This document shows positions 1-47,829 of a stretch of DNA of 52,519 bases, piece after piece; within the stretch, counting starts at the first letter, position 1, and every line of letters starts with the position of its first letter. Source of the stretch: a virus (taxonomy: Duplodnaviria > Caudoviricetes). The notes under the pieces were generated by a model, which worked only from the letters and a program-made list of their open reading frames with translations, had not been told where the DNA came from and did no database searches. The translations under genes were made by a program, and so were the position numbers. The DNA is taken from positions 1 through 52,519 of IMG/VR virus record IMGVR_UViG_3300029268_000023, one strand, 5' to 3'.

Positions 1-240
1 TTGATCCCAATATAAACCGAAGCTTTTTAATTTGGCTTCGGTTTCAGCTCTATAACACTCTTTTCTTCCAGTTGTGAGAATGATTTTAGTACCTTCATGT
101 TCCCACTCATCAAACTTTCCTTTAACACCAGGAAGAATATCAGCTGACTTAGTTAGGTCTAATTGAATGCTCATACCCATACCAAAGTTAGTCCATATAG
201 TACCATCTATGTCAACAAAGACAGTTTTAACTCCGTGCAT
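1..240 (-). CDS. HAD-superfamily phosphatase (runs off window edge)
   Basis: Manual translation from ATG at 240: MHGVKTVFVDIDGTIWT...IILTTGRKECYRAETEAKLKSFGLYWDQ. Has the DxDGT motif I and the TGR motif II. Not in the ORF track. Confidence 0.85.
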   Translation of the reverse strand, partial: MHGVKTVFVDIDGTIWTNFGMGMSIQLDLTKSADILPGVKGKFDEWEHEGTKIILTTGRKECYRAETEAKLKSFGLYWDQ

Positions 241-241
241 G

Positions 242-1159
242 TTAATGACTCCCTGTTGGACGAACTGGAGTAGAAAGTGAATCTCCTTTTTTCCAGGCTT
301 GAGGACCTTCAACAGTTTTCTTCTTTCCAAGCTCTTTCACAAAATCAACATATAAATCATTACCAAGTTGATCCATCTGAACAAAGAAAGCTTCTGATAA
401 ATCAAGCATGTCTTTTGTGACTATAGGAGCTGTATTAGTTGGAGTCATGTAGACATGATCGTCCCATAAAGTGTTAAAGTTCTTAGCACCTACCTCATCA
501 AATATTAAATCAAATACTTTTGTTCCAATAGTTGGAACTGTTCCATATTGACAAGCCCACTTAACACCAGCTACTGTTCTCATAGCACCAGTGATTATTT
601 CTGTCTTTGAGTCTGTGAATTGACGAATGAAATTAATTTGCTCTTTAGCGTCAATACCTTTTTCTTCCATTCTACCAATAATGACACTGATATAACGGGG
701 CTTAAATGTTGCAGCCATTGCAGCTGTTGCACAATCAGCAAGACCAGTAACATTGAAATCAATATTTTGTTTAACTGTCTTGAAAGCTTCTGTTTCAATT
801 TGATTCATTGAGGATAGAACTTTATAGTATGGAGGTAGTTTGCACGCAATCTTTGTACGACCATCACTTGCAGATTGAAACATGTTAACCCACATAGCCA
901 TCTCATGAATATTCATCTTTGAATATGGTGGCTGTACATAAACAACACCTTTACCATCATCTCTAATCTTGGTAATTAAACGACAGAGAGCACTGGTCCG
1001 ATCAAGTGCTTCTTCCATTGTCTTAATATTAACTTTGCCAAATGCTGATGGATTGGTTGTTACTCCCAATACATCCTTCTCATCAACATATCCCCAAAGC
1101 TTTCTCCAAGCGTCAGAAATATAATCTACTGAAGCGGTGTCAAAAAAGAATTGTCCCAT
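242..1159 (-). CDS. Divergent transaldolase/FSA-family class I aldolase
   Basis: FFDTA, GVTTNPS, Schiff-base K (ACKLP), NVT, YISVIIGRM and GAMR match TalC/FSA family motifs. Confidence 0.85.
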   Translation of the reverse strand: MGQFFFDTASVDYISDAWRKLWGYVDEKDVLGVTTNPSAFGKVNIKTMEEALDRTSALCRLITKIRDDGKGVVYVQPPYSKMNIHEMAMWVNMFQSASDGRTKIACKLPPYYKVLSSMNQIETEAFKTVKQNIDFNVTGLADCATAAMAATFKPRYISVIIGRMEEKGIDAKEQINFIRQFTDSKTEIITGAMRTVAGVKWACQYGTVPTIGTKVFDLIFDEVGAKNFNTLWDDHVYMTPTNTAPIVTKDMLDLSEAFFVQMDQLGNDLYVDFVKELGKKKTVEGPQAWKKGDSLSTPVRPTGSH

Positions 1160-1907
1160 TATTAACCTCTTTCATTAAAATTGTTTCAATATTTTGATCA
1201 TATTTGATTCTAATTAATTTTATATTTTTACTACAGCAAAACTCATTTTTTATGTTATCTTTGTAACAAGTATCTATATATTCATTTTCTGTTGTTATAT
1301 GTCGACCTCCTACGCCTCTACCAACACCCTCAATAAAATGCTGTATACCATCATATTCTATACAGGTGTCTTTTTCTGTTAAATAAAAGTCAAACTTTAA
1401 CATTTTGTTAGTTTTTGGATTAACACATTCTCTAAATGTTTTCTGTTTTAAGAAATTTATATTGTGTTGCTCTAACCAAACTCTTATAAACGACTCTCCG
1501 GTTGACTCACAGCACTTTGGACAACCTGTTCTGCATGAAGTGTGCATGTCAGGAGCTTGCCAAAAAGCACCATGTTTATAACAAATAATTTGAACTTTGG
1601 TGCTATTGTTTACATACAACACAGTTGAGTAATCATACTTGTTTCCGTGTGCTTGTTTAGCTTTTTTTATAAACTGCTCTAAGGTTGCTGGTTTATTCTG
1701 TGGCCGGTGTTTAACACCACACTTAGGACACCCTTGTTTTACGTTAATATGATTATTTGGTGTTTGGATAAAATCTCCATGTATTGGACATTTTATACAG
1801 ATCTTTGTCATAGCTTTTACGTATACTGTTTTAGAATAATCATATTTATCGTTATGAACAGTTTTAGCTTTTTGAATGAATTCTTCTGTAGTTAATACTT
1901 TGCGCAC
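1140..1907 (-). CDS. Putative homing endonuclease: Zn-binding 'HGDKYDYS..CPxHG..CPKC' repeats plus PD-(D/E)XK (Vsr/DUF559-like) nuclease
   Basis: Two repeats, then S-x-GE...FDFYL...IEYDGIQHF...KNEFC...LIRI. Likely start is GTG at 1907, behind GGAGG (ORF track starts at 1922). Confidence 0.8.
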   Translation of the reverse strand: MRKVLTTEEFIQKAKTVHNDKYDYSKTVYVKAMTKICIKCPIHGDFIQTPNNHINVKQGCPKCGVKHRPQNKPATLEQFIKKAKQAHGNKYDYSTVLYVNNSTKVQIICYKHGAFWQAPDMHTSCRTGCPKCCESTGESFIRVWLEQHNINFLKQKTFRECVNPKTNKMLKFDFYLTEKDTCIEYDGIQHFIEGVGRGVGGRHITTENEYIDTCYKDNIKNEFCCSKNIKLIRIKYDQNIETILMKEVNNGTILF

Positions 1908-1913
1908 AAGATG

Positions 1914-2000
1914 CCTCCACATAGGATAAAAGTGAGAAATAGAAGTAATCTTTGATGTGGCAAAGAAACAGTTGCAACTGCTGTCCTTCTTATTTCTTCT
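1914..2000 (-). ncRNA. Structured cis-RNA motif, copy A (three-way junction; CCACA loop pairs with UGUGG at the SD)
   Basis: AGAAAUAAGAAG-GACAG-CAGUUGCAACUG-UU-UCUUUG-CCACAU-CAAAGA-UUA-CUUCUAUUUCU...UGUGGAGG. A covarying second copy lies at 40226-40312. Confidence 0.7.
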
Positions 2001-2002
2001 AT

Positions 2003-2767
2003 TTATGTTTTAGCAAAGATCGAAACATCCTCTGGAGTACCAAGTGGTATCATTGTCTCTGCTTTATAAGCAAACACTGGAATCTCATTATCTAAATATT
2101 CTTGAAAAACTTGTGACATATAAAACTCACCATTTACAGGATCTTTTGTATTTAGAATTTTTTTAGCTAATTTACGAAACATATTAACTGAGCTAAAATA
2201 GAATACACCAATAATAGGTTTATAACCTTTTGCAAGTGCTGTTGGATCTTTCTCTTTAATATCTTTTACTCTGCCAGTAGCTTCATCTATTTGAGCAAAA
2301 CACCATTTGGAACTATCATCAATTGGTTCAAAATAACATGTTGCAGCAAAAAATTCATGTTTAATTTTTTTGATAAACTCAAAAAAATGCTGTGAAGAGT
2401 GTAAATTATCAGAGTCTAAAAAGAGAATAGGTTTTTCACCAATATATGCTTGAGATGATATTGTTGAATGAGCTGTATCTAAATTGCCTCTTGTAAGATG
2501 GCTGAACATTTTATAATCTGTGAACGGATACAAACTTGACACAAAATTAACAAGGTTATATTGATTATCATGTTCTGTGCGGATAGCGAATGTTATAAAC
2601 TGTTTTTCAAGTTCTTCTCTTGGTAGTGAACTTAATGTCCATTCAAGAATTGTTTTACCTTTTATATTAATTAAAGGCTTTAGAGTTTTATACTCACTAT
2701 TTTCAAATCGAGATCCATTTCCAGCCATCAACACAACAATATCAATATTGTTTTCGAATGGAGTCAT
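2003..2767 (-). CDS. Sugar-phosphate nucleotidyltransferase (NTP_transferase fold)
   Basis: VVLMAGNGSRF...KPLI, LDSD, IKEK, GEFYMS, LGTPED. Confidence 0.9.
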   Translation of the reverse strand: MTPFENNIDIVVLMAGNGSRFENSEYKTLKPLINIKGKTILEWTLSSLPREELEKQFITFAIRTEHDNQYNLVNFVSSLYPFTDYKMFSHLTRGNLDTAHSTISSQAYIGEKPILFLDSDNLHSSQHFFEFIKKIKHEFFAATCYFEPIDDSSKWCFAQIDEATGRVKDIKEKDPTALAKGYKPIIGVFYFSSVNMFRKLAKKILNTKDPVNGEFYMSQVFQEYLDNEIPVFAYKAETMIPLGTPEDVSIFAKT

Positions 2768-3777
2768 TTTATCTCCTTGTAAATGTCGTTAAGAATAGAC
2801 AAACCAGTCATATACATCACTTTTTGACGGTCTAAACTATCATAGTGTCTTGCACACATTCCAACAAAAATAAGACCTTCAATTAACCGAACTCGAGTGA
2901 GATCAAAATCATTAAACTGTTTCTCAAATATTCCTTGAAGAAAATGTTTAGCTAACAAATCACAATCAAATGAGTATAAATATTCTTTTAGTGGAGTTAT
3001 TTCAGTTAATGAAAATTTGTCGTTTATGATAAACTCGTACATGCCTTCAAATGAGTGAAACAGTTTAGCAACGTCATACAAAGGATCTCCGTATACTCCA
3101 CCTAATGAACCAAAACTACCACGAGGATCGATGAACTTAAAGATTGGTTCATTATTATAAGACATTCCACAAAGAATATTTGAGAAGCACATGTCACCAT
3201 GAATAACGTAAAATGGAATATCTCTACAAAGACTTTTTTCAATGTATTCTTTAATATCATTCCAAATAACTTCAAAGTTCAAGCATTTTTTTCCATTTAT
3301 TATTAATTCTTTCTCACTACACAAATTGGAGAAAAATTCAAAATTAGTTTTAAGAGCGTTATACTCTCGTTCTGTTTTATTAACATACATATCTCGAGAA
3401 TATCGGTTAGTGTACGGAGTTTTGCCTTCTTCACAACCATTAAAATCTTCCGTTATCAATTTATAAAGCTTGTGAGCAACACTTTTCCAGAAATCAAGTG
3501 ATATGAAAGACGATTGTGTGTCGTCTATCATAGCCATTCCTAAATTAGGATAAGCATAATATTCCATCATTAGATGATAAGTCTTGCAACCATCTTCTGT
3601 CCAATAATCTATAACTTTTGGAAATAGTGCACTAAGATGACCACAATCTTTTTCTATTTGCTGAAAGTATTCATATTCAAGTTGTAATTTAGAATTAGAA
3701 CTCTTCTTTGTAATTCGATTTGTGTGAAGATCGAACTCAAATGAATTATACGCTCTTGTCACAAGCTTTTGATCCAT
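2764..3777 (-). CDS. APH/choline-kinase-like phosphotransferase (capsule-biosynthesis type sugar kinase)
   Basis: RAYNSF, HGDMCFSNIL, FIDPRGSFG, GDPLYDVAKL. Confidence 0.85.
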   Translation of the reverse strand: MDQKLVTRAYNSFEFDLHTNRITKKSSNSKLQLEYEYFQQIEKDCGHLSALFPKVIDYWTEDGCKTYHLMMEYYAYPNLGMAMIDDTQSSFISLDFWKSVAHKLYKLITEDFNGCEEGKTPYTNRYSRDMYVNKTEREYNALKTNFEFFSNLCSEKELIINGKKCLNFEVIWNDIKEYIEKSLCRDIPFYVIHGDMCFSNILCGMSYNNEPIFKFIDPRGSFGSLGGVYGDPLYDVAKLFHSFEGMYEFIINDKFSLTEITPLKEYLYSFDCDLLAKHFLQGIFEKQFNDFDLTRVRLIEGLIFVGMCARHYDSLDRQKVMYMTGLSILNDIYKEIK

Positions 3778-4391
3778 TAGTTATATACCTCATTATAAAT
3801 TTCTTCAACTGAAATTATATTAAGATTGAACTTTGCAGCGAGAACTTCAAGATCAGGCATGCGAGACATAGAACCATCTTTATTCATGATTTCAATAATA
3901 ATAGAAATTGGTTGTAAGTCAGCAAGTTTACACACTTCGATTGAAGATTCTGTATGGCCACGTCTTTCAGTAAGAAGTCCTTTTTTTGGTCTTAATCCGA
4001 ACATATGTCCAGGTCTACATAGCTGTTCTGGTTTAGTGTTTTTGTTAAGCAAAAGCTTAACAACTTCAAGACGATCACTGATACTCATACCCGTTGTTGC
4101 ATTATCTCTTGCATCAAAAGAAAGTGTAAATGGTGTTCCAAATGGATCAGTTGGCTTATCAGTCATCATAGGAATCTGTAAGCGATCAAAAATCTCACCA
4201 ACTGCAGGAATACACATCAATCCACCAGCTTCTCTTTTAATAAAAGCAAGATTATCAATTGTAGCCTTTTCTGCAGCTAAAACAAGGTCACCCTCATTCT
4301 CACGATTATAGTCATCAACAATGATAATTGGCTTTCCATTCAATACATCTTCAATAATTCTTGCGACATGAGCGTTCTTAAACTGTTTCAT
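3777..4391 (-). CDS. ribB: 3,4-dihydroxy-2-butanone 4-phosphate synthase
   Basis: VDDYNRENEGD, GLMC, GTPFT, TTGMS.SDR, RPGHMF, RRGHTE and E..N.DG.M.R: full RibB motif set. Confidence 0.92.
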   Translation of the reverse strand: MKQFKNAHVARIIEDVLNGKPIIIVDDYNRENEGDLVLAAEKATIDNLAFIKREAGGLMCIPAVGEIFDRLQIPMMTDKPTDPFGTPFTLSFDARDNATTGMSISDRLEVVKLLLNKNTKPEQLCRPGHMFGLRPKKGLLTERRGHTESSIEVCKLADLQPISIIIEIMNKDGSMSRMPDLEVLAAKFNLNIISVEEIYNEVYN

Positions 4392-4405
4392 TTAAACTCC
4401 TTTGA

Positions 4406-4714
4406 TTAATTATCATTTGTATCTATTATAGCGTGAATTGCATTTATCATACACATACCATCTTTTTGAGGAACAGCACATAAGGCTATATGTGTACGTG
4501 TAAAGTATTCCATATCTTCTAATTCTTTTACATCACTTGAACCAACGAGTCCAATGAGAGCTGATCGAAGTAACTTGATTTTATCTTCTGCTGCACGAAG
4601 CGGATGTTTTTCGCAAACTTTTATGTGATCAGTTAAAACTTGATCTCCAGATGCTGGAGTGTCTTGTGGATATTCATGTCCACAATAAATGCAGGTTAGA
4701 ACTCTTTTTTCCAT
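4406..4714 (-). CDS. Hypothetical protein with CxxC/H/C Zn-binding motif
   Basis: TCIYCG...HIKVCEKHP; AGGAG SD. Confidence 0.7.
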   Translation of the reverse strand: MEKRVLTCIYCGHEYPQDTPASGDQVLTDHIKVCEKHPLRAAEDKIKLLRSALIGLVGSSDVKELEDMEYFTRTHIALCAVPQKDGMCMINAIHAIIDTNDN

Positions 4715-4724
4715 TATACACTCC

Positions 4725-5681
4725 TTAATCTATAAACACCTTTTTAAATTGTTCCATGACAGTTTTGGGATTAAACCGTTCACTATACTTATCGTAGTTT
4801 CGTTGTTTGTTATAGCTATTTAGTAATAGATCAACAAGCTGATTTTCATTGTTGTAGTAGAAACCATCATTAGCTAAAATCCAAATATGAGATCGTTGTT
4901 CAGATCCGTAGTAAGTTATAACTGGTTTATTACAAATGGAGAACTCTGCAACTGCAAGTCCAAAGCTTTCTCCTAACGCTCTTCCATGTAAACAAACATC
5001 ACATGTGTTTATGAACATCCTTTTCTTCAACATGTCAGCTGTACCTCTTAGATATATAATTCGTTCATGTTGAAATGGAAGAGGTCTTGTGTTCAGTAGT
5101 AAGAAGTAGAGGTCCGATCTTTTATCGAGAGCACGCTTAATAGCATTATATACAAATGGAATATCTAACTGATCATATCCACCATGTCGCCCTACAACGA
5201 AAGCGCCTTTAGGAATGTTCAATCTTTCTCTTAAATTCTGATTTGTTTCAGGAAGTTGAACAATATGAGGCACAATCGGTACATTTATTTGTCTTCTTTT
5301 CTGTACGTCCTGAGATAGCCATTCAGATATAACAGCCCATTTATCTCCATGAGGATCTAAATCAAATACACCATGAATTGCTGACTTGGTTGAAAAACTT
5401 ATGTTTGCATCAAATCCACCACTCTTTAGTGAGTAAAACAAATCAGCTGATTGCTGAAAAACAATTTTCTCTATTATTTGATCTTCATTATGGTCATACC
5501 AAATAACTTTAAATCTGTTCTCAAACTTTTCAACAACCAAAGGATCTGTAAAAGAACTATTCTTTCGACACATTATAATAGAATTATGTCCCAATAGTTC
5601 TTCACAATAGTGAGCATAATCGTATATAGCTACTTCTGTGCCTCTATTGCTAAGTTGATTACATTGGAAGAGAATATTCAT
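4725..5681 (-). CDS. GT-B (GT4-like) glycosyltransferase
   Basis: RGTEVAIYDYA, VGRHGG, GESFGLAVAEF (ExxGxxxxE), KPVIT. Confidence 0.85.
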   Translation of the reverse strand: MNILFQCNQLSNRGTEVAIYDYAHYCEELLGHNSIIMCRKNSSFTDPLVVEKFENRFKVIWYDHNEDQIIEKIVFQQSADLFYSLKSGGFDANISFSTKSAIHGVFDLDPHGDKWAVISEWLSQDVQKRRQINVPIVPHIVQLPETNQNLRERLNIPKGAFVVGRHGGYDQLDIPFVYNAIKRALDKRSDLYFLLLNTRPLPFQHERIIYLRGTADMLKKRMFINTCDVCLHGRALGESFGLAVAEFSICNKPVITYYGSEQRSHIWILANDGFYYNNENQLVDLLLNSYNKQRNYDKYSERFNPKTVMEQFKKVFID

Positions 5682-9335: not shown

Positions 9336-10128
9336 GTTCCTTTAGCCAAAGTTTTACAATAACTTCTTTCGGAAGAGACCAAAAACTATCCGATGAAGAA
9401 TTGCCATGAAAATTAGTATTAGTTAGAGCACATTCTCCTTTTATATAAGACCAACTTTCACTTATTGAGCAATGATAAACATCAGTAACCGAATCATAAA
9501 TTTTTTGATGATCGTTTTCATACCCCATAAATTGAACATTATCATTATACTTATATTGTTCAATATACTCTTTAAAATACTGAATATCAGTTATAAGTCC
9601 ATATACCAATACTAATTTACACCCATCATTTAAAGCATTGTTAATTGCAATGTGGGTTTGTTTATTTCTATCAATTGAGCCAATGACTCCTCCAACTTTA
9701 AGTAGCGGTTTTGAATTAGGTTTTATATCTGGTAAAATATTAGGCAATATAAATGATGGGTGGTTAACTTCATGAAAGGATTTTTGTTTTTCAGATACAA
9801 AATGGATCTTATCAAATATTTGATATTTAATCGAATCAACTCTCATTACATCACACTCATGGCAACTATAAATGAGTTTTTTTACTGGCACATCTTCTCT
9901 TATTTTAAATTTATCAAACTTGGATGTAAAATGAGCAATTAGATAATCACTACCATCTGCATTAATTGATACTGTTTTTGATTGTTTAGATCGACATAGT
10001 TGTGTATGATATGAATGTGGACCATAAAAAATAGTGTCATAACCACACTCATTTAGAGCATTAGTTAAATTTGCAAACGCGTGCGTGCTGCCACCAGGTC
10101 CTGACCAACCACTAAATATTTTTATCAT
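9322..10128 (-). CDS. GT-B (GT4-like) glycosyltransferase
   Basis: GPGGS..., IGSIDRNKQ, VQFMGY, SESWSYIKGEC. Confidence 0.75.
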   Translation of the reverse strand: MIKIFSGWSGPGGSTHAFANLTNALNECGYDTIFYGPHSYHTQLCRSKQSKTVSINADGSDYLIAHFTSKFDKFKIREDVPVKKLIYSCHECDVMRVDSIKYQIFDKIHFVSEKQKSFHEVNHPSFILPNILPDIKPNSKPLLKVGGVIGSIDRNKQTHIAINNALNDGCKLVLVYGLITDIQYFKEYIEQYKYNDNVQFMGYENDHQKIYDSVTDVYHCSISESWSYIKGECALTNTNFHGNSSSDSFWSLPKEVIVKLWLKELDYE

Positions 10129-11062
10129 AAATATTTTCTTTCAATATTTGTTCAACTTTTCTTAATTTATAATATGGTATTCGTAACAAGTTTATTTTTC
10201 TACTAACACAATATTTATTTTTGACAGTATCGTGTGCAAAATGATAATCATAATCTTTTTGAGTTATTTGGTGTTTATTTACATGACCACCAATACCTTC
10301 TTTAAAATGCTGCTTTCCATCAAACTCTATAATTAAGTTATATTTCGGTAAATAAAAATCGAAAGGTAATCTTCTATGTGTGCTATTATTAATACAATCA
10401 TTAAAAGTTTTTTGGCATTCATGTTCTATATTATTTTTAGATAACCAATCTTTTATTTTTATTTCACCTTTTGAATTTCTGCATTTAGAACAACCATTTC
10501 CACTTAGATGATTTCGAGGAGATTGTAAAAATATTCCATGTAAAGAACAAATAATTTCAACCTTTACACCACTATTCTTGTAAATAACTTTAGAATAATC
10601 ATATTTGTCACCATGAATATCACGTGCATCTTTTATAAAACTTTCAATTGTTTTAGCATTTCTTCCAAACCGTGTATCATATCCACATTTAGGACATCCA
10701 ACCTTTGATTTTAAAAATCTTCCAGCCGGAATCATTATTTCGCCATGAATAGGACAAACAACTACAATCTTTGAGTTAAAGTTTTTATATTGAACTTTAG
10801 AGTAATCATATTTATTACCATGAATTTCTTTAGCTTTTTGTATGAATTCGTCAGTTGAATTTGAATAAACATTGCTGCACTTTTTACATTTTGATTTTTT
10901 ATATGTATGAGTTGCTGGCATCTGCCAGAACTCACCATGTTCAGGACATATAATACAAACCTTTGTAATGTTATTGATGTATTCAACTTTAGAGTAATCA
11001 TACTTATCACCATGAATTTCTTTAGCTTTTTGTATAAAATCTTCTCGAGTCATTTTAACCAT
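10112..11062 (-). CDS. Putative homing endonuclease, three Zn-binding repeats plus PD-(D/E)XK nuclease
   Basis: HGDKYDYSKV...CPxHG x3; SKGE, LPFDFYLP, IEFDGKQHF, LLRIPY. Confidence 0.82.
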   Translation of the reverse strand: MVKMTREDFIQKAKEIHGDKYDYSKVEYINNITKVCIICPEHGEFWQMPATHTYKKSKCKKCSNVYSNSTDEFIQKAKEIHGNKYDYSKVQYKNFNSKIVVVCPIHGEIMIPAGRFLKSKVGCPKCGYDTRFGRNAKTIESFIKDARDIHGDKYDYSKVIYKNSGVKVEIICSLHGIFLQSPRNHLSGNGCSKCRNSKGEIKIKDWLSKNNIEHECQKTFNDCINNSTHRRLPFDFYLPKYNLIIEFDGKQHFKEGIGGHVNKHQITQKDYDYHFAHDTVKNKYCVSRKINLLRIPYYKLRKVEQILKENIYDKNI

Positions 11063-11089
11063 ATAAATACCTCCTATTAGTATTTATAT
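11061..11089 (-). promoter_or_regulatory. Late promoter TATAAATA embedded in a hairpin covering the SD edge and start codon
   Basis: ATATAAATAC-taataggag-GTATTTATAT(G), 10-bp stem. Confidence 0.75.
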
Positions 11090-14805: not shown

Positions 14806-14934
14806 TTATTCTCCGAAATCTAATTCTTTTGGTTCTTCGTTATCTGTATCAAAATATTCAAAACCGGTTGTACCTAATAATTCTTCAAAGTCATCGAGCG
14901 ATCCAGCATCATCGATAGTGTCATTGTTGTCCAT
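14806..14934 (-). CDS. 42-aa very acidic peptide (not in ORF track)
   Basis: AGGAGG SD; MDNNDTIDDAGSLDDFEELLGTTGFEYFDTDNEEPKELDFGE*. Confidence 0.6.
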   Translation of the reverse strand: MDNNDTIDDAGSLDDFEELLGTTGFEYFDTDNEEPKELDFGE

Positions 14935-15923
14935 TAAATATCCTCCTTTTTAATTAGCTCAGCTTTACCTAACTTTACCATTTTTATTATTTTCTGTCTA
15001 TATAGGTTTAGCTTTTGGCAGCAATCTTTTATAGTATCATATTTAATGCCATCGATGATAACACCTACTGCTGCAGGATTTTTATCTCCACACATTCCTT
15101 TATGACCAGTTCTTGATTTAACAAATTTCTGAATTGATTCTTTGGAATGAGGACGATCGCCTTTAATAAAACCATTCGGTATAATATCATCTTTATTTAT
15201 AACTTTTTTAACATCTAAATCTTTATTATAAATAATAATTCTACCTTTATACTTACCTATTCTATTTATTGACATTTTGTGTTTGGTATCATCTGATAAT
15301 TTTTTCCCTTTATTAGCAACAGATAATATCATTTTATGTTCTTCAGTTCTTTTTTTCCCTTTATTTCCATTTCCTCTTTTTATTTTCTCTTCATCCGCCC
15401 GTTTTGATGATCCATATATATTTTCATAAGTTTTACCTTTATATAAACGGCTCATATATTCTTTGTGTTCTTTAGTTTTAGGTTTTCCACCAATAACAAA
15501 CCCGATTGGAATATTTTCAGTTTTATTAATACGTTTTTCTACATTTATTTCTTTATTGTATATTGCAATTTGACCTGTTCTTAATAAACTTTGGTGTTTA
15601 CAAATCTCTTTTTTATTAGGATGGTTTGATATTAAATCTCCGCCAGTTCCACCTTTGTCAATATTATATCCAATTTTTTGATCACAAGCGTTTAACTTAT
15701 CTATCCAATAAATTTCTCGTTCATTTACATTGTTATCTTCACAAGCTTCTAATGTTTCACGTTTAAAATTTTCAGCTCCATATTTTTTAATAGATCTTTT
15801 TAAATATAGACCTGATCCTAAATATCCATCTTCAGAAGACGTATAGTGTTGACCTACATAAATTTTGTTATTCACTATATTAGTAGTTTTATAAATTATA
15901 GGTTTATTATTTAATTCAATCAT
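14934..15923 (-). CDS. GIY-YIG (Seg-like) homing endonuclease with NUMOD3-type repeats
   Basis: IIYKTTN...IYVGQH...YLGSG...E.YWI...GYNIDKGG; KGKKRTEEHK, KGKKLSDDTKHKMS. Confidence 0.88.
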   Translation of the reverse strand: MIELNNKPIIYKTTNIVNNKIYVGQHYTSSEDGYLGSGLYLKRSIKKYGAENFKRETLEACEDNNVNEREIYWIDKLNACDQKIGYNIDKGGTGGDLISNHPNKKEICKHQSLLRTGQIAIYNKEINVEKRINKTENIPIGFVIGGKPKTKEHKEYMSRLYKGKTYENIYGSSKRADEEKIKRGNGNKGKKRTEEHKMILSVANKGKKLSDDTKHKMSINRIGKYKGRIIIYNKDLDVKKVINKDDIIPNGFIKGDRPHSKESIQKFVKSRTGHKGMCGDKNPAAVGVIIDGIKYDTIKDCCQKLNLYRQKIIKMVKLGKAELIKKEDI

Positions 15924-39391: not shown

Positions 39392-40219
39392 TTAAGGTTT
39401 TGAAAATCTTTCGATTATCCAATTTTTATACTGTATACTATAACTCTTTTTATTGCTAAATGTAACTCTTATCATTTTGTAATTCAACTCTGGTTTGTCT
39501 AAGCAAAACTTTTTAATATCTGTTACATTATTGTATTCTATACTATTATTTATAAACCTATAAATAAATTTTGAATTATTGTTATTTGTACCAGATCCAG
39601 CAATTAATCTTTTATTTTTGTATTCATCACCTTGCTGTCTTGCTTTAGACATTTCACTTAATTTTCTTCTAATCTCATCTGGGTTAGAGTGTTTACATAT
39701 TTCATCAAGAGTTTTGCCTTTATGATCTGACACTTTACCTTTACGGGAAGAATTATCTCTTAATTTTTGTTTATGGTCTTCTGTTAATTTTCTACCAGTT
39801 AACGTATCACTTATTTTCTTTTTGATTTCTTCTGATGTTTTATGACCTATCATTCTTATTGATCGCTCATGGCGTTCTTTTTCAGATATCACTCTTTTGA
39901 ACCCACATACTCCTTCACCACCATCCGTCATATTCAATAAATTTCCAGTTTTATTAACTCTTTTACCATACTTCTTTATTAAACATTTTTCTAATATAAA
40001 TGCATCTTCTTCTGTTAGATGTTTTACCACAAATATTGTTTGAGGGTTCTCTTTATATTGATCAATATACTTTTTAACCCAGTTTAAAAAATATGTTCTT
40101 TTCTTTGATGAAAAAGCACTTGATAGATGATCTAAATATCTTCTTCCTTTTCCCTTTCCAACATACACAACTTTATCATTTATATCAAGATATGCATAAA
40201 CATAGAATTTTCTTTCCAT
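39392..40219 (-). CDS. GIY-YIG (LEM-3-like) homing endonuclease with NUMOD3-type repeats
   Basis: FYVYAY...YVGKGKG.R...H, E..LI..YG, L.NMTDGGEG; KKKIS..LTGRKLTEDHK. Confidence 0.85.
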   Translation of the reverse strand: MERKFYVYAYLDINDKVVYVGKGKGRRYLDHLSSAFSSKKRTYFLNWVKKYIDQYKENPQTIFVVKHLTEEDAFILEKCLIKKYGKRVNKTGNLLNMTDGGEGVCGFKRVISEKERHERSIRMIGHKTSEEIKKKISDTLTGRKLTEDHKQKLRDNSSRKGKVSDHKGKTLDEICKHSNPDEIRRKLSEMSKARQQGDEYKNKRLIAGSGTNNNNSKFIYRFINNSIEYNNVTDIKKFCLDKPELNYKMIRVTFSNKKSYSIQYKNWIIERFSKP

Positions 40220-40225
40220 TTAATA

Positions 40226-40312
40226 CCTCCACAAAGGTTGATAAGTTAAAAAGAGTAATTCTTGTTGTGGCAAGAAAACGGTTTCGAACCCGCTGTCCTC
40301 TTTTATCTTTTT
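40226..40312 (-). ncRNA. Structured cis-RNA motif, copy B
   Basis: AAAAGAG-GACAG-CGGGUUCGAAACCG-UU-UUCUUG-CCACAA-CAAGAA-UUA-CUCUUUU...UGUGGAGG. Confidence 0.7.
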
Positions 40313-40314
40313 AA

Positions 40315-42060
40315 TTAAGCTACAGTTGTAGTGACTCCTGTACGAGTAACTATTGTGTTAAGCTGTATGAATTCACTGACCCTCACCGGTTGGCAGTAAA
40401 CGTTAATAACCATCTGATTACTATCTATAATCTGAGATGTGTTATTTGTTGAGTCGACAACAACTTCGTATGCAGTTAATCCACCCTCAGACTGTACAGT
40501 TGCAAGAAAACTATCTATGTTTGACCAAACACGAAGACGGTTTCTTTCAGTGTTTGTTATGTCAAGAACATATGGTTGTAAAGCAGCTTCAATAGATGTT
40601 TCAATGAAAAGCAGCAATCTGCGTACATTGATTCTATCAAGTGCTGACTTCTTTAGCTGAGCTGTTTTCTGACCCCAAATTACATGTCCAACACCACGTA
40701 CGAAACGTGAAGTGTTGATGTTTACATCATACAACTGCCCAATTTGAGCAAAAGAGAATATAACATTCTGATCAAGAGCTGGTCCAATAACACCTCTTGC
40801 ATAACCAGCAGGAGCGTCCCATACGTTAGCTACATTATCTGTTCTTGCCATTGCAGCAGCACCATATATACATTTTGGAACATATATCTTACGATCATTG
40901 TATTGGTCATAAATGTAATCCCAACCAGCATATAAAGCAACATATGATGGATTAACATATCCATAAATTTCAGCTGCTTTTACTTGATCTACTGTCAATG
41001 CTGTTCTTGCACCAGTCTGACAGACAGCAACACAATCTTTTCTAAACTCAGCTACTTCAGCAGCCTTTTTCTTAACTGCAGTATCATATGTAGGAACAAT
41101 CAAGATATCTACATCTAAATCTTCCTTACTTTTCATAAGATCATAACCAGCTGTTGATGTTAAACCAGTATTCTCATTTGCTGCTGCACCACCTTGCAAT
41201 TTCTCAAAATTAAACTTACGGTTAATACCATTAATATCAACTGATGGTACAAGAGCAAGGTTAAAAATACTCATAGCTGATGGAACTTTCACATATATGT
41301 ATTGTGAGTTTCCGTTTACAACTTCTTCTATTTGTAACGAGTTGCCATCTTGATCTGTTTGCTGATTAACAGTACCATAGAAAGTCTCTACAGGAGTGTA
41401 TCCAGATAGAGCTGTTTGCTCACTTGTAGTCCATACTTCTTTTGATGTCTTTGTATAAACATTCAATTTGAATACTCTCTCCGCATTATCCATGTCATCT
41501 ACAGCTGAAGAATAATCATCAAAACTATATCTCCAATCGCAAGCAGATGAATACCACTCAATACCAACAGCAACATTATGAGCATCAGTACCAGGACCTG
41601 TAGCACCAATTAATAAAACATCTGATGCAGCAAAAGAGAAATCTTCCAAAGCAGCAATAGAATTAGTTTTATCAAGAGATGTAGGAGCAATGTTAGCAGA
41701 AATGCTACTTGAATATGTTCCTGTTCCGCTTGTAGTGTAAACAGCATTAGCATATCTATCTAATGTATCAGCTATTCTCATAACATTCAATGAGTTTGAA
41801 TACTTTAAGAATTCAAGTGCAGCATATGATGCAAATCCATACTCAGGAGTTTTTCTGTCTGTTGCAGCACCTGATGTGAATATAGGTTGTCCAAATGTAT
41901 CAATGAAACTTTTATCATCTGCTATTTCAACAAATCTGTTAACTGGACCATTCTTAGAGCGTACAATTATAGCGCCCACAGAGGTTCCAGCTGGTGTTGT
42001 AATCTCAGACTGATCTACTTCCTTTAGGTACACACCAGGAGTTGAATATTTTTGTGGCAT
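40315..42060 (-). CDS. Tail sheath protein gp18
   Basis: TPGVYLKEVD, GPVN, W.APAG..RG, WGQKT, SALDRINVRRL. Confidence 0.95.
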   Translation of the reverse strand: MPQKYSTPGVYLKEVDQSEITTPAGTSVGAIIVRSKNGPVNRFVEIADDKSFIDTFGQPIFTSGAATDRKTPEYGFASYAALEFLKYSNSLNVMRIADTLDRYANAVYTTSGTGTYSSSISANIAPTSLDKTNSIAALEDFSFAASDVLLIGATGPGTDAHNVAVGIEWYSSACDWRYSFDDYSSAVDDMDNAERVFKLNVYTKTSKEVWTTSEQTALSGYTPVETFYGTVNQQTDQDGNSLQIEEVVNGNSQYIYVKVPSAMSIFNLALVPSVDINGINRKFNFEKLQGGAAANENTGLTSTAGYDLMKSKEDLDVDILIVPTYDTAVKKKAAEVAEFRKDCVAVCQTGARTALTVDQVKAAEIYGYVNPSYVALYAGWDYIYDQYNDRKIYVPKCIYGAAAMARTDNVANVWDAPAGYARGVIGPALDQNVIFSFAQIGQLYDVNINTSRFVRGVGHVIWGQKTAQLKKSALDRINVRRLLLFIETSIEAALQPYVLDITNTERNRLRVWSNIDSFLATVQSEGGLTAYEVVVDSTNNTSQIIDSNQMVINVYCQPVRVSEFIQLNTIVTRTGVTTTVA

Positions 42061-42137: not shown

Positions 42138-43808
42138 CTAAAAGTAGAAATCTTCTTCGGTAGCTGGCATGCCATTATCGATGATAGTTATGCCTACACT
42201 ATTGTCTTCCTCTTCTTCTTGTTCTGGTCGACTTAGTGAAAATTCTCTATTGATCTTTTTAGCTGCAAGACGTTTGCCATCAAAATATGGTGTTGATATA
42301 AAATAAACAGCCCATAGTAAAGATGTTACTAAGTCATCATGATCTTCTGGACTACTGGCATTATATACTCCAGGTGTTTTTTCTTCATAAACACTTAATT
42401 GGTAAACTGTACGTCTATGATTAAGTTTCAGCATGCGATTTTCAACATACTTTTTAAGAAGCATGCATCCTTCAATTTTATTTTTTCGAGTTGCACGAAT
42501 ACCAATTCCTTTTTTATCACAATTAACAATATTTTCGCTTTCATGATCATACCATATACAATTAGCAACAACAGTTCCAACATTATTATTTTCAAGCATC
42601 AACATACCATCGTTATAATACTCTGACATTGTTATGCACACCTTAGCAAAACTAAAGGGATCTATGAGATTACTGTGATAAACAGCAACCTGTTCTAAAT
42701 CAATTTCATTTCTAATTCTGATTACATTTACAACACTTTCATCATTTCCTGTACCCTCAGCTGAGTCAACACCTAATATATAAAACGCTCCAGGTACTGG
42801 TTCAGCAAATATTTCTAACAATCCTTCATACTTAGTTATAACAGGTTCAATTGGATCTAATGCCTCTAACACTTCACTATCAATTAATGTATTACTTGAT
42901 CCAATAAACTTACAATCAAACTCCTGATTAAAAGCAATCTGTCCAACGTCCTCTACTACTCGTTTTTTGAAATTAGGATCCTGTTTATATGTTGGAACAT
43001 CTTGCCAGCGTATCTTTACAGGATAAAAGCTATTCTTGTCTTTTTTCGCATTATCCCACATTGTATAGAAGTGATTTAATCCCTGAGGAGTTGATATTAT
43101 AACAACCTTAGATGATTGTCCTGATATAATAGTTGGGTATACAGATCTCATGAACTCATCAGCAACATTGTTTGGGACGAATGCAAACTCATCTAAATAT
43201 AATATGTTGTATGTTTGTCCACGAACTGCAGATGATCCTGTTGCAGCTGCAATAATACGTGTTCCATTTGAAAGCTGAATTGTTTTTGCATTCCAACCAC
43301 CATCTTTAATACCAACCTGCATCCAATGAGGTAAGTTTTCATATACCATTTTTACACGTCTTAAAATATCAAGAGCAGTTGATTCTTTGTTAGCAAGAAT
43401 AGCGATGTTTTGATCTTTATTAAATATAGCATGAAATATTAGATATATAGCACTTATTGTTGTATTATGAGATAATATACTATTTGTGTAATAAGTGTGA
43501 TTAGTTGAATTAACCGACAAATCATACATGTTTTCAAATCGATCAGTCTCCTCAACCATATTGACCGATAATAGGCCAACTTTTGTTCTAATTAACTGTC
43601 CTACTTGCAAATCCTTTATAAAAACTTCGTTATAAAACTCATCAATTAAAATGTGGTTATCTGCACCCTCTAATTCAAAAGGTCCTACTTGTATTTTCCA
43701 TACTTTATATTCAATTGTTTTATTAGAATGAGATATGTCTTCCCAACCAGTATCAGTTTCAACTTCCCATTCATCAACTTCAAATGTTTCTATAAATTTT
43801 TTATCCAT
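42138..43808 (-). CDS. Terminase large subunit C-part, with N-terminal 115-aa C-intein (43464-43808)
   Basis: MYDLSV...YYTNSILSHN|TT, then ILANK, RGQ..N.LYLDEFAF, STP.G.NHF, GVDS.EG, ENN, HDDLV. Confidence 0.93.
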   Translation of the reverse strand: MDKKFIETFEVDEWEVETDTGWEDISHSNKTIEYKVWKIQVGPFELEGADNHILIDEFYNEVFIKDLQVGQLIRTKVGLLSVNMVEETDRFENMYDLSVNSTNHTYYTNSILSHNTTISAIYLIFHAIFNKDQNIAILANKESTALDILRRVKMVYENLPHWMQVGIKDGGWNAKTIQLSNGTRIIAAATGSSAVRGQTYNILYLDEFAFVPNNVADEFMRSVYPTIISGQSSKVVIISTPQGLNHFYTMWDNAKKDKNSFYPVKIRWQDVPTYKQDPNFKKRVVEDVGQIAFNQEFDCKFIGSSNTLIDSEVLEALDPIEPVITKYEGLLEIFAEPVPGAFYILGVDSAEGTGNDESVVNVIRIRNEIDLEQVAVYHSNLIDPFSFAKVCITMSEYYNDGMLMLENNNVGTVVANCIWYDHESENIVNCDKKGIGIRATRKNKIEGCMLLKKYVENRMLKLNHRRTVYQLSVYEEKTPGVYNASSPEDHDDLVTSLLWAVYFISTPYFDGKRLAAKKINREFSLSRPEQEEEEDNSVGITIIDNGMPATEEDFYF

Positions 43809-44808
43809 ATAAAAATTCTCTACACTTATCTATAACTTGTTGTTTGTTTTCTTTCCATTCACTTTCCCAAATAACCAATACAATATAACCTAACCGCCCG
43901 GCATAATTTATTTTTTTACTGTCGGATTCCCATATATCATGTGCGTATTTATGCTTTCTTTTGTGGTAATGATATTTGTCATATTTATTAGGGTTACAAT
44001 GCCAGTAATCTCCATTATACTCTATAATTTTCTTTTCATTGTATAGATCATACGCATAATTAAGAGGACAATCATCTCGTTTAAGTATTAATTGACTATA
44101 ACACTGCAGCTTTTCTTTTAATTCTCTTTCAGCGATTGAAACACTTATACCATTATATCTGCTGGCAAAAGAAATCTTCTTTTTATTAATTTCTTGTTTC
44201 TCTTCAAATGATTTAGAATTAAGTTTGTCTTGCCACTTCTGTTGACGCTCAGCAAACTTTTTAACACCTAACTCTTCACCATACTTAGCAATGCATTTTT
44301 CTTTGCTAAATGTTTGTTGACGCTTATGTACTTTTTGTTTAGCTTCTTCTTCAGTAAATCCTTTATCAAGCCAATACTTTACATGCATGGGAGAAAGTTT
44401 CTTGCCAGTATTATATAACTCTTTATTTACTTCTCCACCAACCTTTGCACGTTTCTCATATTTATTGTGCCAAAGAACATTACATTTAGTGTTGTGGCAA
44501 AACGATTTATACCCATTTTGTAGATTGTTGAATTCTAATTCTTTTCCACACCATTTACAAGATTTCTCTTTTTTACCAACAGTGTCTAATAAATATTTAA
44601 TATAATATTGTTCATGTGTGATTGTATCAGAGTGTGATCGAGTTAAATGAGAACTCAAACGATTATAACTTTCAAATTGTTCTCCACATATTTGACAAAC
44701 ATATTCGCATTTATATTGATCAACATGATCTTTTAGTTTATGTTTTCTTAACTGACCAGCATAAAAACCTTTTCCACAAAATTCACAAATTCTTTTTTCA
44801 ATTGTCAT
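43801..44808 (-). CDS. Homing endonuclease: C2H2 Zn fingers plus Vsr-like nuclease, between the TerL halves
   Basis: CEFC..H, CQIC..H...H; YD, IIEYNGDYWH, D..K, VIWESEW. Start probably ATG 44808, behind GGAG. Confidence 0.85.
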   Translation of the reverse strand: MTIEKRICEFCGKGFYAGQLRKHKLKDHVDQYKCEYVCQICGEQFESYNRLSSHLTRSHSDTITHEQYYIKYLLDTVGKKEKSCKWCGKELEFNNLQNGYKSFCHNTKCNVLWHNKYEKRAKVGGEVNKELYNTGKKLSPMHVKYWLDKGFTEEEAKQKVHKRQQTFSKEKCIAKYGEELGVKKFAERQQKWQDKLNSKSFEEKQEINKKKISFASRYNGISVSIAERELKEKLQCYSQLILKRDDCPLNYAYDLYNEKKIIEYNGDYWHCNPNKYDKYHYHKRKHKYAHDIWESDSKKINYAGRLGYIVLVIWESEWKENKQQVIDKCREFLYG

Positions 44809-44843
44809 TAAATACTCCTTTTTATTGTTCATGAGTATTTATA
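44809..44843 (-). promoter_or_regulatory. Late promoter within an SD-sequestering hairpin
   Basis: TA-TAAATACTC-atgaacaataaaaag-GAGTATTTA-ATG. Confidence 0.75.
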
Positions 44844-46568: not shown

Positions 46569-46751
46569 TTAAACAGCAGAGGCACTAAGTGCAATAGTTG
46601 CTGTAGATGCTGTTTTTGGATTAAAATTAACAATTGTTGTTTGTAGTATATTAGCTGAGTCAATATAACTAACTAATATAGTATTGTTTCCTGTTGGTGT
46701 AATATCAACTATCGTGACACTTTCACCATTCATAATAGCTGTAACATTCAT
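46569..46751 (-). CDS. Small hypothetical, likely virion protein
   Basis: 60 aa; coupled to HEG stop; S/T/A-rich end. Confidence 0.55.
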   Translation of the reverse strand: MNVTAIMNGESVTIVDITPTGNNTILVSYIDSANILQTTIVNFNPKTASTATIALSASAV

Positions 46752-47758
46752 TTTTTATCCTTTGTAAGGAGTTTGAGGTAGTTGTCTATGATATTATCAA
46801 TTTGATCAATATTTATATAGGGTATTCTAAGAATATTTATATTATTGTTTAAACAGTACTGGTTTTTCATGATATCTTTTCTTTGTATATCTTTAAACTG
46901 ATTCAGTAATTCTTCGTTAGATAACCTACCACGTGAATAATCTACAGGTCTAAAATGTTGCTCTCCATCAAACTCTATACATAAATTATGATCAGGTAGA
47001 TAAAAGTCAAATTTTAATGATGATTTATCTTTTAAACCAATAAATCTTTTTTGTTCTTTAAATTTAATTCTATTATTCATGAGGTAAATATTAATTATCT
47101 CTTCACCTTTTGATCTATTACATTTAGGACAACCATTACCATTTAAATGGTCTCCTGCTTTTTGTGTATATTCACCATGATTAGGACAAATTATTGTTAC
47201 ATTTTTATAGTATCCATCATAATTAGTTTTAGAATAGTTATATTTATCATTGTGAATTATATTAACTTTTTCTATAAAAATTTTTGTATTGTATTTATGG
47301 ACTTTTTTAATAACCTTAATCTTTTTTGGCTTTCTTTGTTTATCACCTCTTAGGATGCTTGCGCATTTAAAGCAACCAAAACCTCTTTGATGAGTTGTTG
47401 GCAGTTGTTCAAATATTCCATGAGTAGGACATATTATCTTTACTTTTTCTGAGGCATTTTTCCAATCAACTAAAGAATAGTCATATTTATCACCATGATG
47501 TTTTTTGGATCTTTTTAAGAATTCTTCTAATGTACCAGTTAAACTGTTTTTAGTTCTTTCATAACCACATTTAGGACAACCTCTTTGATGGATTGTGTGG
47601 TCTTTAGGTGATATTTCGAAAGTGTGATTATGTTTAATGCAAATAATTTTAACTTTGGATCGAAAGTTTACATATTCAACCAAAGAATAGTCATATTTGT
47701 CACTATGTATTTTAACAGCTTTTTCAATAAAATCTTCTTTTGTTTGCTTTATAGCCAT
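46748..47758 (-). CDS. Putative homing endonuclease, three Zn-binding repeats plus PD-(D/E)XK nuclease
   Basis: KYDYS...C..H..CPKC x3; SKGE, FDFYLP, IEFDGEQHF, LRIPY. Confidence 0.82.
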   Translation of the reverse strand: MAIKQTKEDFIEKAVKIHSDKYDYSLVEYVNFRSKVKIICIKHNHTFEISPKDHTIHQRGCPKCGYERTKNSLTGTLEEFLKRSKKHHGDKYDYSLVDWKNASEKVKIICPTHGIFEQLPTTHQRGFGCFKCASILRGDKQRKPKKIKVIKKVHKYNTKIFIEKVNIIHNDKYNYSKTNYDGYYKNVTIICPNHGEYTQKAGDHLNGNGCPKCNRSKGEEIINIYLMNNRIKFKEQKRFIGLKDKSSLKFDFYLPDHNLCIEFDGEQHFRPVDYSRGRLSNEELLNQFKDIQRKDIMKNQYCLNNNINILRIPYINIDQIDNIIDNYLKLLTKDKK

Positions 47759-47829
47759 AATAATTACTCCTTTTTAATTCCTAAGAGTATTTATTATTTC
47801 ATCGAATTTAATCCCCATCTATTATAACA
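47759..47829 (-). promoter_or_regulatory. Late-like promoter (AATAAATA) in an SD-sequestering hairpin; upstream extended -10
   Basis: AATAAATACTC...GAGTAATTATT-ATG; TGTTATAAT at 47829-47821. Confidence 0.6.

Follow-up and report, generated by a model that had tools for sequence, protein, structure and literature searches.

Background

Homing endonucleases are model selfish genes, and how they limit their own expression so that it stays harmless to the phage is a long-standing question. For I-TevI, I-TevII, I-TevIII and segB of phage T4 and for mobE of phage Aeh1, the ribosome-binding site (RBS) is described as hidden in a hairpin that carries a late promoter in its 5' arm; the hairpins of I-TevI, segB and mobE repress these genes, and late transcripts escape the repression (PMC2988022, PMC3014915). 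Here we describe a leader RNA of uncultured T4-like phages that occurs twice, as copies A and B, in a phage contig of 52,519 nucleotides (IMG/VR record IMGVR_UViG_3300029268_000023). The whole contig was analysed and is referred to as the window (52.5 kb, completeness estimate 24%). Like the T4-type hairpins, the leader is located directly upstream of homing endonuclease genes (HEGs), is linked to the T4 late-promoter box TATAAATA and has the Shine-Dalgarno sequence (SD) sequestered in RNA pairing, and both types of element limit the expression of a potentially harmful nuclease, an effect that is predicted for the leader. The T4-type elements are described as single hairpins that lack sequence homology between genes and contain the promoter within the 5' arm, whereas the leader constitutes one homologous family with a three-way junction, a kissing loop and an SD hairpin, and the box mostly precedes the entire fold. 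Hiding of the RBS is already known for HEGs of T4-type phages (PMC2988022); the architecture and the family are new.

Related elements have been reported from environmental phages. Dassa et al. (2009) described RNAfold hairpins, including TATAAATA, upstream of metagenomic free-standing HEGs in 'fractured genes' (PMC2677866). These resemble the leader in their association with HEGs of environmental T4-like phages, including zinc-finger and Vsr-like nucleases, and in having a conserved structure in the 5' untranslated region, a late-promoter box and two conserved complementary motifs, whereas the main text, to whose description this comparison is limited, mentions neither a three-way junction nor loop-loop pairing (PMC2677866). 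A partial overlap between these hairpins and the leader family may exist. A catalogue drawn from IMG/VR lists 8,495 candidate structured RNAs, which are intergenic motifs supported by covariation and in some cases lie within 25 nt of start codons; its main text presents motifs upstream of GP20, GP32, terminase, resolvase and other genes, names no HEG-associated motif and contains no occurrence of HNH or GIY-YIG (PMC10690425). We found no description of the leader family in the literature, although the supplements of this catalogue may still list it, possibly as an unnamed DNAVirus_X entry. The leader is also reminiscent of the PeSL cassettes of T4-type phages, which are described as short mobile modules of promoter and stem-loop with many repeats in T4-like genomes; unlike the SD-masking leaders with their late promoters, PeSLs are composites of early promoter and terminator that flank novel open reading frames (ORFs) (PMC2839356, PMC4122927).

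This work demonstrates that the RNA structure of the leader is real beyond reasonable doubt and proposes that the leader probably serves as a portable translational attenuator of HEG cassettes.

Methods

Leaders were retrieved by exact-pattern scans of viral contigs, metagenome contigs and species genomes, and the results were filtered with two covariance models. Model R1 was based on three copies (A, B and C), with the remaining copies aligned by Infernal, and model R2 was built from 45 hits. R2 yielded 51 distinct hits at ≥ 43.5 bits and none at E up to 0.01 in 30 loci found by pattern only. An earlier note on this DNA, made from the sequence alone, had proposed a covariance model from the copies and a search for homologues; with these scans and models, the family grew to 66 distinct leaders (the 51 R2 hits and 15 further copies with a large loop). 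Unless another number is given, alignment statistics refer to 51 distinct sequences, across which one model aligns the leader. Downstream genes were typed by Pfam and PHROGs scans of representatives, and other ORFs by BLAST cluster and N-terminal likeness; some of the family matches are under the Pfam cut-off (SegE_GIY-YIG, and LEM-3 for locus L173).

Results and discussion

The leader is a three-way junction with a kissing loop over the SD

Copies A and B are both located on the minus strand, as are all long ORFs of the window, and are 77% identical when aligned. In each case, the leader fills the ~95 nt between the upstream stop codon and the HEG start codon (Table 1). The stems, GACAG, UUA, the CCACA loop and UGUGGAGG listed in the earlier note are all present, with P1 differing between the copies (GAAG/CUUC versus AGAG/CUCU); the strand and the late-promoter box TATAAATA upstream had been missed. 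RNAfold minimum-free-energy folds of both copies contain the same three-way junction, P1-GAC-P2-P3-UUA-P1' (z about -2.2), and the pattern GGACAGC-N8-20-TTGCCACA occurs twice in the window versus not once in 100 dinucleotide shuffles. A relaxed junction descriptor, applied to all retrieved loci, revealed no further three-way junctions in the window.

The junction elements of the earlier note hold as letters, while their assignment had to be revised: P2 opens with an A-U and a G.U pair, in which the AG of GACAG is paired with the UU that follows. As these bases belong to P2 and P3 adjoins P2 without a linker, the junction strands are GAC, none and UUA. The A-U pair is found in all 51 sequences and the G.U pair in 48, with U.U in the remaining three.

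L3, the 6-nt loop of P3, has its complement in a 6-nt stretch whose last two bases are the first two of the SD, and in this respect the pseudoknot previously proposed is real. The complement of L3 is, however, itself the loop (L4) of a 3-4-bp hairpin (P4) that had been overlooked, and the contact is therefore an intramolecular kissing complex, beyond a loop-to-single-strand pseudoknot. As the rest of the SD is the 3' strand of P4, the kissing-loop complex covers the whole SD. P4 is mostly ACCU/AGGU, with variants CUC/GAG, UCU/AGA, GUCU/AGAC and UUCU/AGAA, and is present as a local hairpin in the minimum-free-energy fold of copy B. The sixth kissing pair covaries already between copies A and B (CCACAU:AUGUGG versus CCACAA:UUGUGG). 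In a large-loop variant, the upper part of P3 is replaced by UCCU-GAAAC-[6-8 nt]-N-AGUA-AGGA; 17 of its 19 unique copies have an exact SD-adjacent complement and one more has it with a single G.U. The GAA/AGUA flanks of this variant presumably resemble a sarcin-ricin or loop E module.

Standard pairs occupy 96.6% of the cells of the alignment, compared to 76.7% in shuffles and 39-51% with slid partners, which bears out the covarying structured RNA of the earlier note. Nineteen of the 23 pairs are changed on both sides, and the covariation score of 0.566 (0.200 in shuffles) was reached by none of 500 shuffles; a set of 41 sequences gave the same picture. All pairs covary in the kissing helix (6/6, 96.4% paired), in P4 (4/4, 87.7% paired) and in P1 (4/4). 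The SD GGAGG is covered by two helices, the kissing helix and P4, all ten pairs of which covary. A contiguous complement to L3 of at least 6 nt directly abuts the SD in 48 of 52 distinct leaders, among which 36 different short loop sequences are used for the kiss; the four others are the degenerate L179 and L162 and the kiss-less variants L240 and L241. The matched L3:L4 duplex has a mean of -5.5 kcal/mol, versus -0.96 kcal/mol with the partners of other members.

That the element acts at the DNA level, as a nuclease target or recombination site, would agree with its moving together with HEGs, yet the sense RNA is indicated by the compensatory changes and by a register that is fixed relative to SD and start codon, and the G.U of P2 (in 48 of the sequences) and other G.U/U.G pairs would be A/C mismatches on the opposite strand. 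We regard this explanation as extremely improbable.

Table 1. Positions of the two leader copies, their structural elements and the adjoining endonuclease genes in the window
Feature	Position	Strand	Description
HEG A	1140..1907	minus	255 aa, GTG start 1907-1905; DUF723-type zinc-finger repeats, nuclease-like C-terminus
Copy A leader	~2007 to 1905	minus	between nucleotidyltransferase-like ORF 2003-2767 and DUF723-type endonuclease ORF (GTG start at 1907)
Copy A late-promoter-like box CATAAATA	2000..2007	minus	one mismatch to TATAAATA; box end 14 nt before GAC
Copy A three-way junction	1942..1989	minus	from fold and covariation
Copy A P1 5' strand	1989-1986	minus
Copy A J1/2 GAC	1985-1983	minus
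Copy A P2	1982-1967	minus
Copy A P3	1966-1949	minus	loop L3 CCACAU 1960-1955
Copy A J3/1 UUA	1948-1946	minus
Copy A P1 3' strand	1945-1942	minus
Copy A P4 hairpin	1914..1925	minus	CCU 1925-1923, loop L4 AUGUGG 1922-1917 (pairs with L3), AGG 1916-1914
Copy A SD GGAGG	1918-1914	minus
HEG B	39392..40219	minus	275 aa, GIY-YIG family, between tail sheath and tail tube genes
Copy B leader	~40304 to 40217	minus	tail sheath gene 40315-42060 upstream; GIY-YIG ORF (ATG 40219) downstream, then tail tube gene
Copy B three-way junction	40249..40304	minus	from fold and covariation
Copy B P1 5' strand	40304-40298	minus
Copy B GAC	40297-40295	minus
Copy B P2	40294-40277	minus
Copy B P3	40276-40259	minus	loop L3 CCACAA 40270-40265
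Copy B UUA	40258-40256	minus
Copy B P1 3' strand	40255-40249	minus
Copy B P4 hairpin	40225..40238	minus	ACCU 40238-40235, loop L4 UUGUGG 40234-40229 (pairs with L3), AGGU 40228-40225
Copy B SD GGAGG	40230-40226	minus

The family is absent from Rfam and recurs within phage genomes

Rfam 15 (4227 models, including riboswitches and the hammerhead, twister-sister, pistol and hatchet ribozymes) gave no match at gathering score in the window. At the motif itself, no match was obtained at E up to 10 in loci L001 and L002 or at E up to 1 in 14 further loci with standard, large-loop and D-type copies, in agreement with the earlier view that no named family is involved. A self-cleaving ribozyme that frees the HEG message or the SD is brought to mind by the three-way junction with its loop-loop contact, which recalls hammerhead-type layouts; with just six unpaired junction nucleotides and no Rfam ribozyme model matching even at E up to 10, we consider it very improbable. 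Nothing was found in support of the ribozyme or of the mobility signal that the earlier note had listed among its options.

Contig G005, which overlaps positions 1-4403 of the window at 99.9% identity, bears five leader copies, and the phage of the window therefore has at least six. A relative of 224 kb (91% complete) has eight copies, and four complete phages of 133-148 kb with terminal repeats (the D group) have one each. R2 also matches records G006-G015. No match was obtained when both window loci and a D-type locus were compared by megablast with 50,697 phage records, a blastn of one leader against phage records gave only short chance matches (E ≥ 0.1), and an R2 search of five cultured T4-like phages (T4, Aeh1, Synechococcus phage B3, Vibrio phage vB_VmeM-32 and Acidovorax phage ACP17) remained without match. 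Among 185,579 bacterial and archaeal species genomes, the pattern used found 21 stretches, the best with an R2 score of 27 bits, and no member was counted; one of these stretches (L263) was inspected and is not a family member. The yield of the other scans varied. The first loose pattern returned one real member (L017) among at least 119 stretches; five of the 12 stretches of one pattern (L127-L130 and L132) and one of 18 viral stretches (L147) were chance matches; and about 38 of 69 metagenome stretches had a model match or a parsed copy, the other 31 having neither.

Leaders precede nuclease genes of at least five families

Of the 51 leaders, 48 are followed by an ORF that is HEG-like in its family or N-terminus, and at least five families are represented, in line with the portable module before unrelated HEG families that had been proposed. 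The DUF723/DUF4379 zinc-finger type is the most common (27 leaders, five of the genes being truncated), followed by two GIY-YIG types (nine), HNH/NUMOD3 types (five), the EndoVII/Stc1-like type (three), the phrog_3339 type (three) and C2H2+NUMOD3 (one); three leaders are orphan or degenerate. HEG A matches PF05265 (27 bits, cutoff 20.9) and phrog_559 (1.2e-52). The assignment of HEG A to PD-(D/E)XK in the earlier note did not hold up, as Pfam gave DUF723 and its relatives had only sub-threshold matches to DUF2726/DUF559; a phmmer search of HEG A against PDB sequences gave no meaningful match. HEG B matches PF22945 (32.9 bits, cutoff 27) and phrog_314, annotated as 'homing endonuclease'.

Within the G010 genome, copies L242-L245 versus L230, L234, L238 and L239 show that both leader forms precede DUF723-type as well as GIY-YIG genes. 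Leader type does therefore not track nuclease family, which suggests that leaders have been swapped between cassettes. In the same genome, a large-loop leader and a GIY-YIG gene (220264-221724; L244, L279) are located directly upstream of the tail tube gene, which is the insertion site of window copy B; the tail tube proteins are 41% identical. An allele of this sheath/tube site free of a HEG was not found, the one good relative, G010, also having a leader and a GIY-YIG gene, and contigs of four DNA runs contained no HEG-less joint at copy A.

Orphan or decaying leaders were observed in L162 (2426-2512), L167 (4808-4904) and L179 (669-762) as well as in L144, L211, L230 and L242. The leader of L162 is followed by a remnant of five codons that overlaps the start of the next gene, and L179 has lost the SD. 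In several leaders, the RNA fold is intact though the downstream HEG ORF is truncated to 10-34 aa.

A late-promoter box is mostly placed upstream of the fold

The exact box TATAAATA is present upstream of 44 of the 66 leaders, and a box with one mismatch upstream of ten. The end of the box is mostly 9-18 nt before GAC, and 5-7 nt before it in only six of the 54 boxes scored. The T4 late box is described as spanning -13 to -6, with the transcript starting 6 nt after the box (PMC1524935). With this spacing, the predicted start is at or just before the P1 5' strand, so that transcription would begin at the foot of P1 and a late transcript would carry the complete fold. The D group has a TTGACA-17-TATAAT promoter instead, in front of a phrog_3339 nuclease. 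In copy A, the stop codon TAA (2003-2005) of the upstream ORF sits inside the box CATAAATA.

Two loci with weaker R2 matches (about 27 bits), L240 (1501-1607, minus strand, in G009) and L241 (1501-1608, minus strand, in G006), precede non-HEG genes. Both are three-way junctions with GAC, an AG...UU P2 and a J3/1 of UAA or UCA, positioned directly behind TATAAATA and lacking a loop-SD complement; a broader group of 5' junction leaders may exist, of which these would be examples. The gene product downstream of L241 starts with MKRIAVLSGGGAMG, has phrog_25573 as its only match and has what we take to be a patatin-like look.

These kiss-less junctions, together with a predicted +1 that in many members falls at the P1 5' strand or precedes it by 1-2 nt, could speak for a 5'-terminal stabiliser or processing element, in which P1 would pair the very 5' end of the transcript against 5'-end-dependent decay, or the fold would be an RNase substrate, and SD pairing would be secondary. 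The start sites behind this explanation are themselves predicted, though, covariation is strongest in the helix over the SD, and P4 puts the SD in a stem in nearly all members, which makes a role of this kind improbable.

Attenuation of translation as the probable function

We propose that the leader is a cis-acting, autonomously folding 5' leader of the mRNAs of free-standing homing endonucleases. The three-way junction, with P2 stacked directly on P3, would present the P3 loop of 6-8 nt for pairing with the loop of the small downstream hairpin P4. Since the last two bases of the P4 loop and the P4 3' strand are the SD, kiss and P4 together would cover all of it and hinder ribosome loading, as the earlier note had anticipated for the loop-SD pairing; 30S binding would be lowered or gated and HEG translation would stay low. 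The leader would thus repress translation, and its action is expected to be constitutive instead of switched. Leader, promoter (usually the late box TATAAATA, in some phages a sigma-70-like box) and nuclease gene would travel as one expression cassette, in which the leader is combined with nuclease genes of the different families. As a whole, this portable translational attenuator is the explanation that we consider probable.

Several points weigh against it. The patterns by which most members were retrieved prescribed GGACAG, TTT and ATTAC as well as the Y/R make-up of P3, and the conservation of the letters GGACAG, TTT and ATTAC is therefore in part a product of the search. These patterns placed no constraint on P1, the inner part of P2, the kiss or P4, and 13 copies were found by covariance model or junction-free pattern only (D1-3, L230, L231, L233, L234, L236, L239 and L242-245). 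In all 13, GAC, UUA and the A-U and U-A pairs are retained, the sole changes being G.U to U.U in three and the P1 closing pair G-C to A-U in two. With about -5.5 kcal/mol for the kiss and a mean of about -1.9 kcal/mol for P4 alone, the lock has only moderate stability, so that repression may be partial. At the HEGs 10112-11062 and 46748-47758 of the same phage, a simple hairpin serves this purpose. The elaborate junction with its invariant core is left unexplained, and such cores are typical of binding sites for ligands or proteins. Finally, the predicted late transcript holds the whole inhibitory fold, unlike in the T4 paradigm, which leaves the release of translation unexplained.

A rival explanation is a gated switch, in which the invariant core (GAC, A-U, G.U, U-A and UUA) would bind a small molecule or a phage or host protein, and binding would set the angle of P3 and make or break the kiss, a riboswitch-like ON/OFF device that follows the state of infection. 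Stems and kissing sequence vary freely around a conserved core, which is unchanged between two phage types that differ in their promoters; the weakness of the kiss would allow tuning, and a plain hairpin suffices elsewhere in the same genome. On the other hand, conservation would be equally expected if the role of the three-way junction were purely architectural. The aligned linkers are variable and poor in G, and inspection by eye revealed in them no alternative helix incompatible with the fold; neither a ligand nor a partner gene emerged as a candidate, and no Rfam riboswitch matched. Of the translational switch suggested in the earlier note, the occlusion of the SD is the part with support, and the response to a ligand or protein the part without. 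We consider it possible, though rather unlikely, that the junction is an aptamer or protein-docking site and that the leaders form a new class of kissing-loop switches reserved for selfish nuclease genes. If so, the locking of L3 onto the SD hairpin would depend on a signal of the infection state, such as a nucleotide-type metabolite, a second messenger or a late protein of the phage, in a plug-in module passed between at least five unrelated HEG families and between phages with different promoter types.

Kissing helices are familiar from other regulatory RNAs: in the guanidine-II riboswitch, the L2-L3 contact of the purine riboswitch, TAR-TAR* and ColE1 RNAI-RNAII, two hairpin loops pair through all of their bases to give a short helix, and in the guanidine-II riboswitch the kiss controls access to the SD. 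Unlike these RNAs, the leader has no conserved loop sequence, and recognition would have to take place at the junction.

The significance of the leader is that many HEGs of unrelated protein families share one homologous, elaborately folded leader RNA, and regulatory RNA modules are therefore exchangeable among selfish elements. With 36 loop 'addresses' on one scaffold, the family also provides an unusually clean natural intramolecular kissing complex, which is attractive for RNA structure work and as a tunable part for translation control. It raises the question why a three-way junction with an invariant core is kept though a plain hairpin serves in the same genome.

Further observations on the window

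Four HEG-like ORFs of the window, all on the minus strand, do not have a three-way-junction leader (10112-11062, 14934-15923, 43801-44832 and 46748-47758). The first and the last of these are preceded by a classical T4-type hairpin (~11060-11089 and 47759-47798, respectively), the 5' arm of which contains a TATAAATA-like box, while the SD and AUG occupy the loop and the 3' arm. As classical hairpins and three-way-junction leaders are found in the same window, two regulatory designs co-exist in one phage.

A tRNA-like reading of the leader was rejected: the T-arm-like P2 loop of copy B (GGUUCGAAACC) is not kept in other members, and ARAGORN found no cloverleaf there and no tRNA or tmRNA genes in the window.

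The large terminase of the window is 33-39% identical to terminases of T4-like phages, and the sequencing runs that contain window DNA carry lake or freshwater metagenome labels; no RNA run with this region was found among them. HEG A is flanked by a transaldolase-like gene (242-1159) and the nucleotidyltransferase-like gene, both on the minus strand, and its stop overlaps the start of the transaldolase ORF by ~20 nt. One contig of a DNA run joins position 4402 to 4725, skipping 322 bp with a small ORF (4406-4714), and the match of G005 to the window ends at 4403; positions 4403-4724 look like an indel polymorphism of a small gene.
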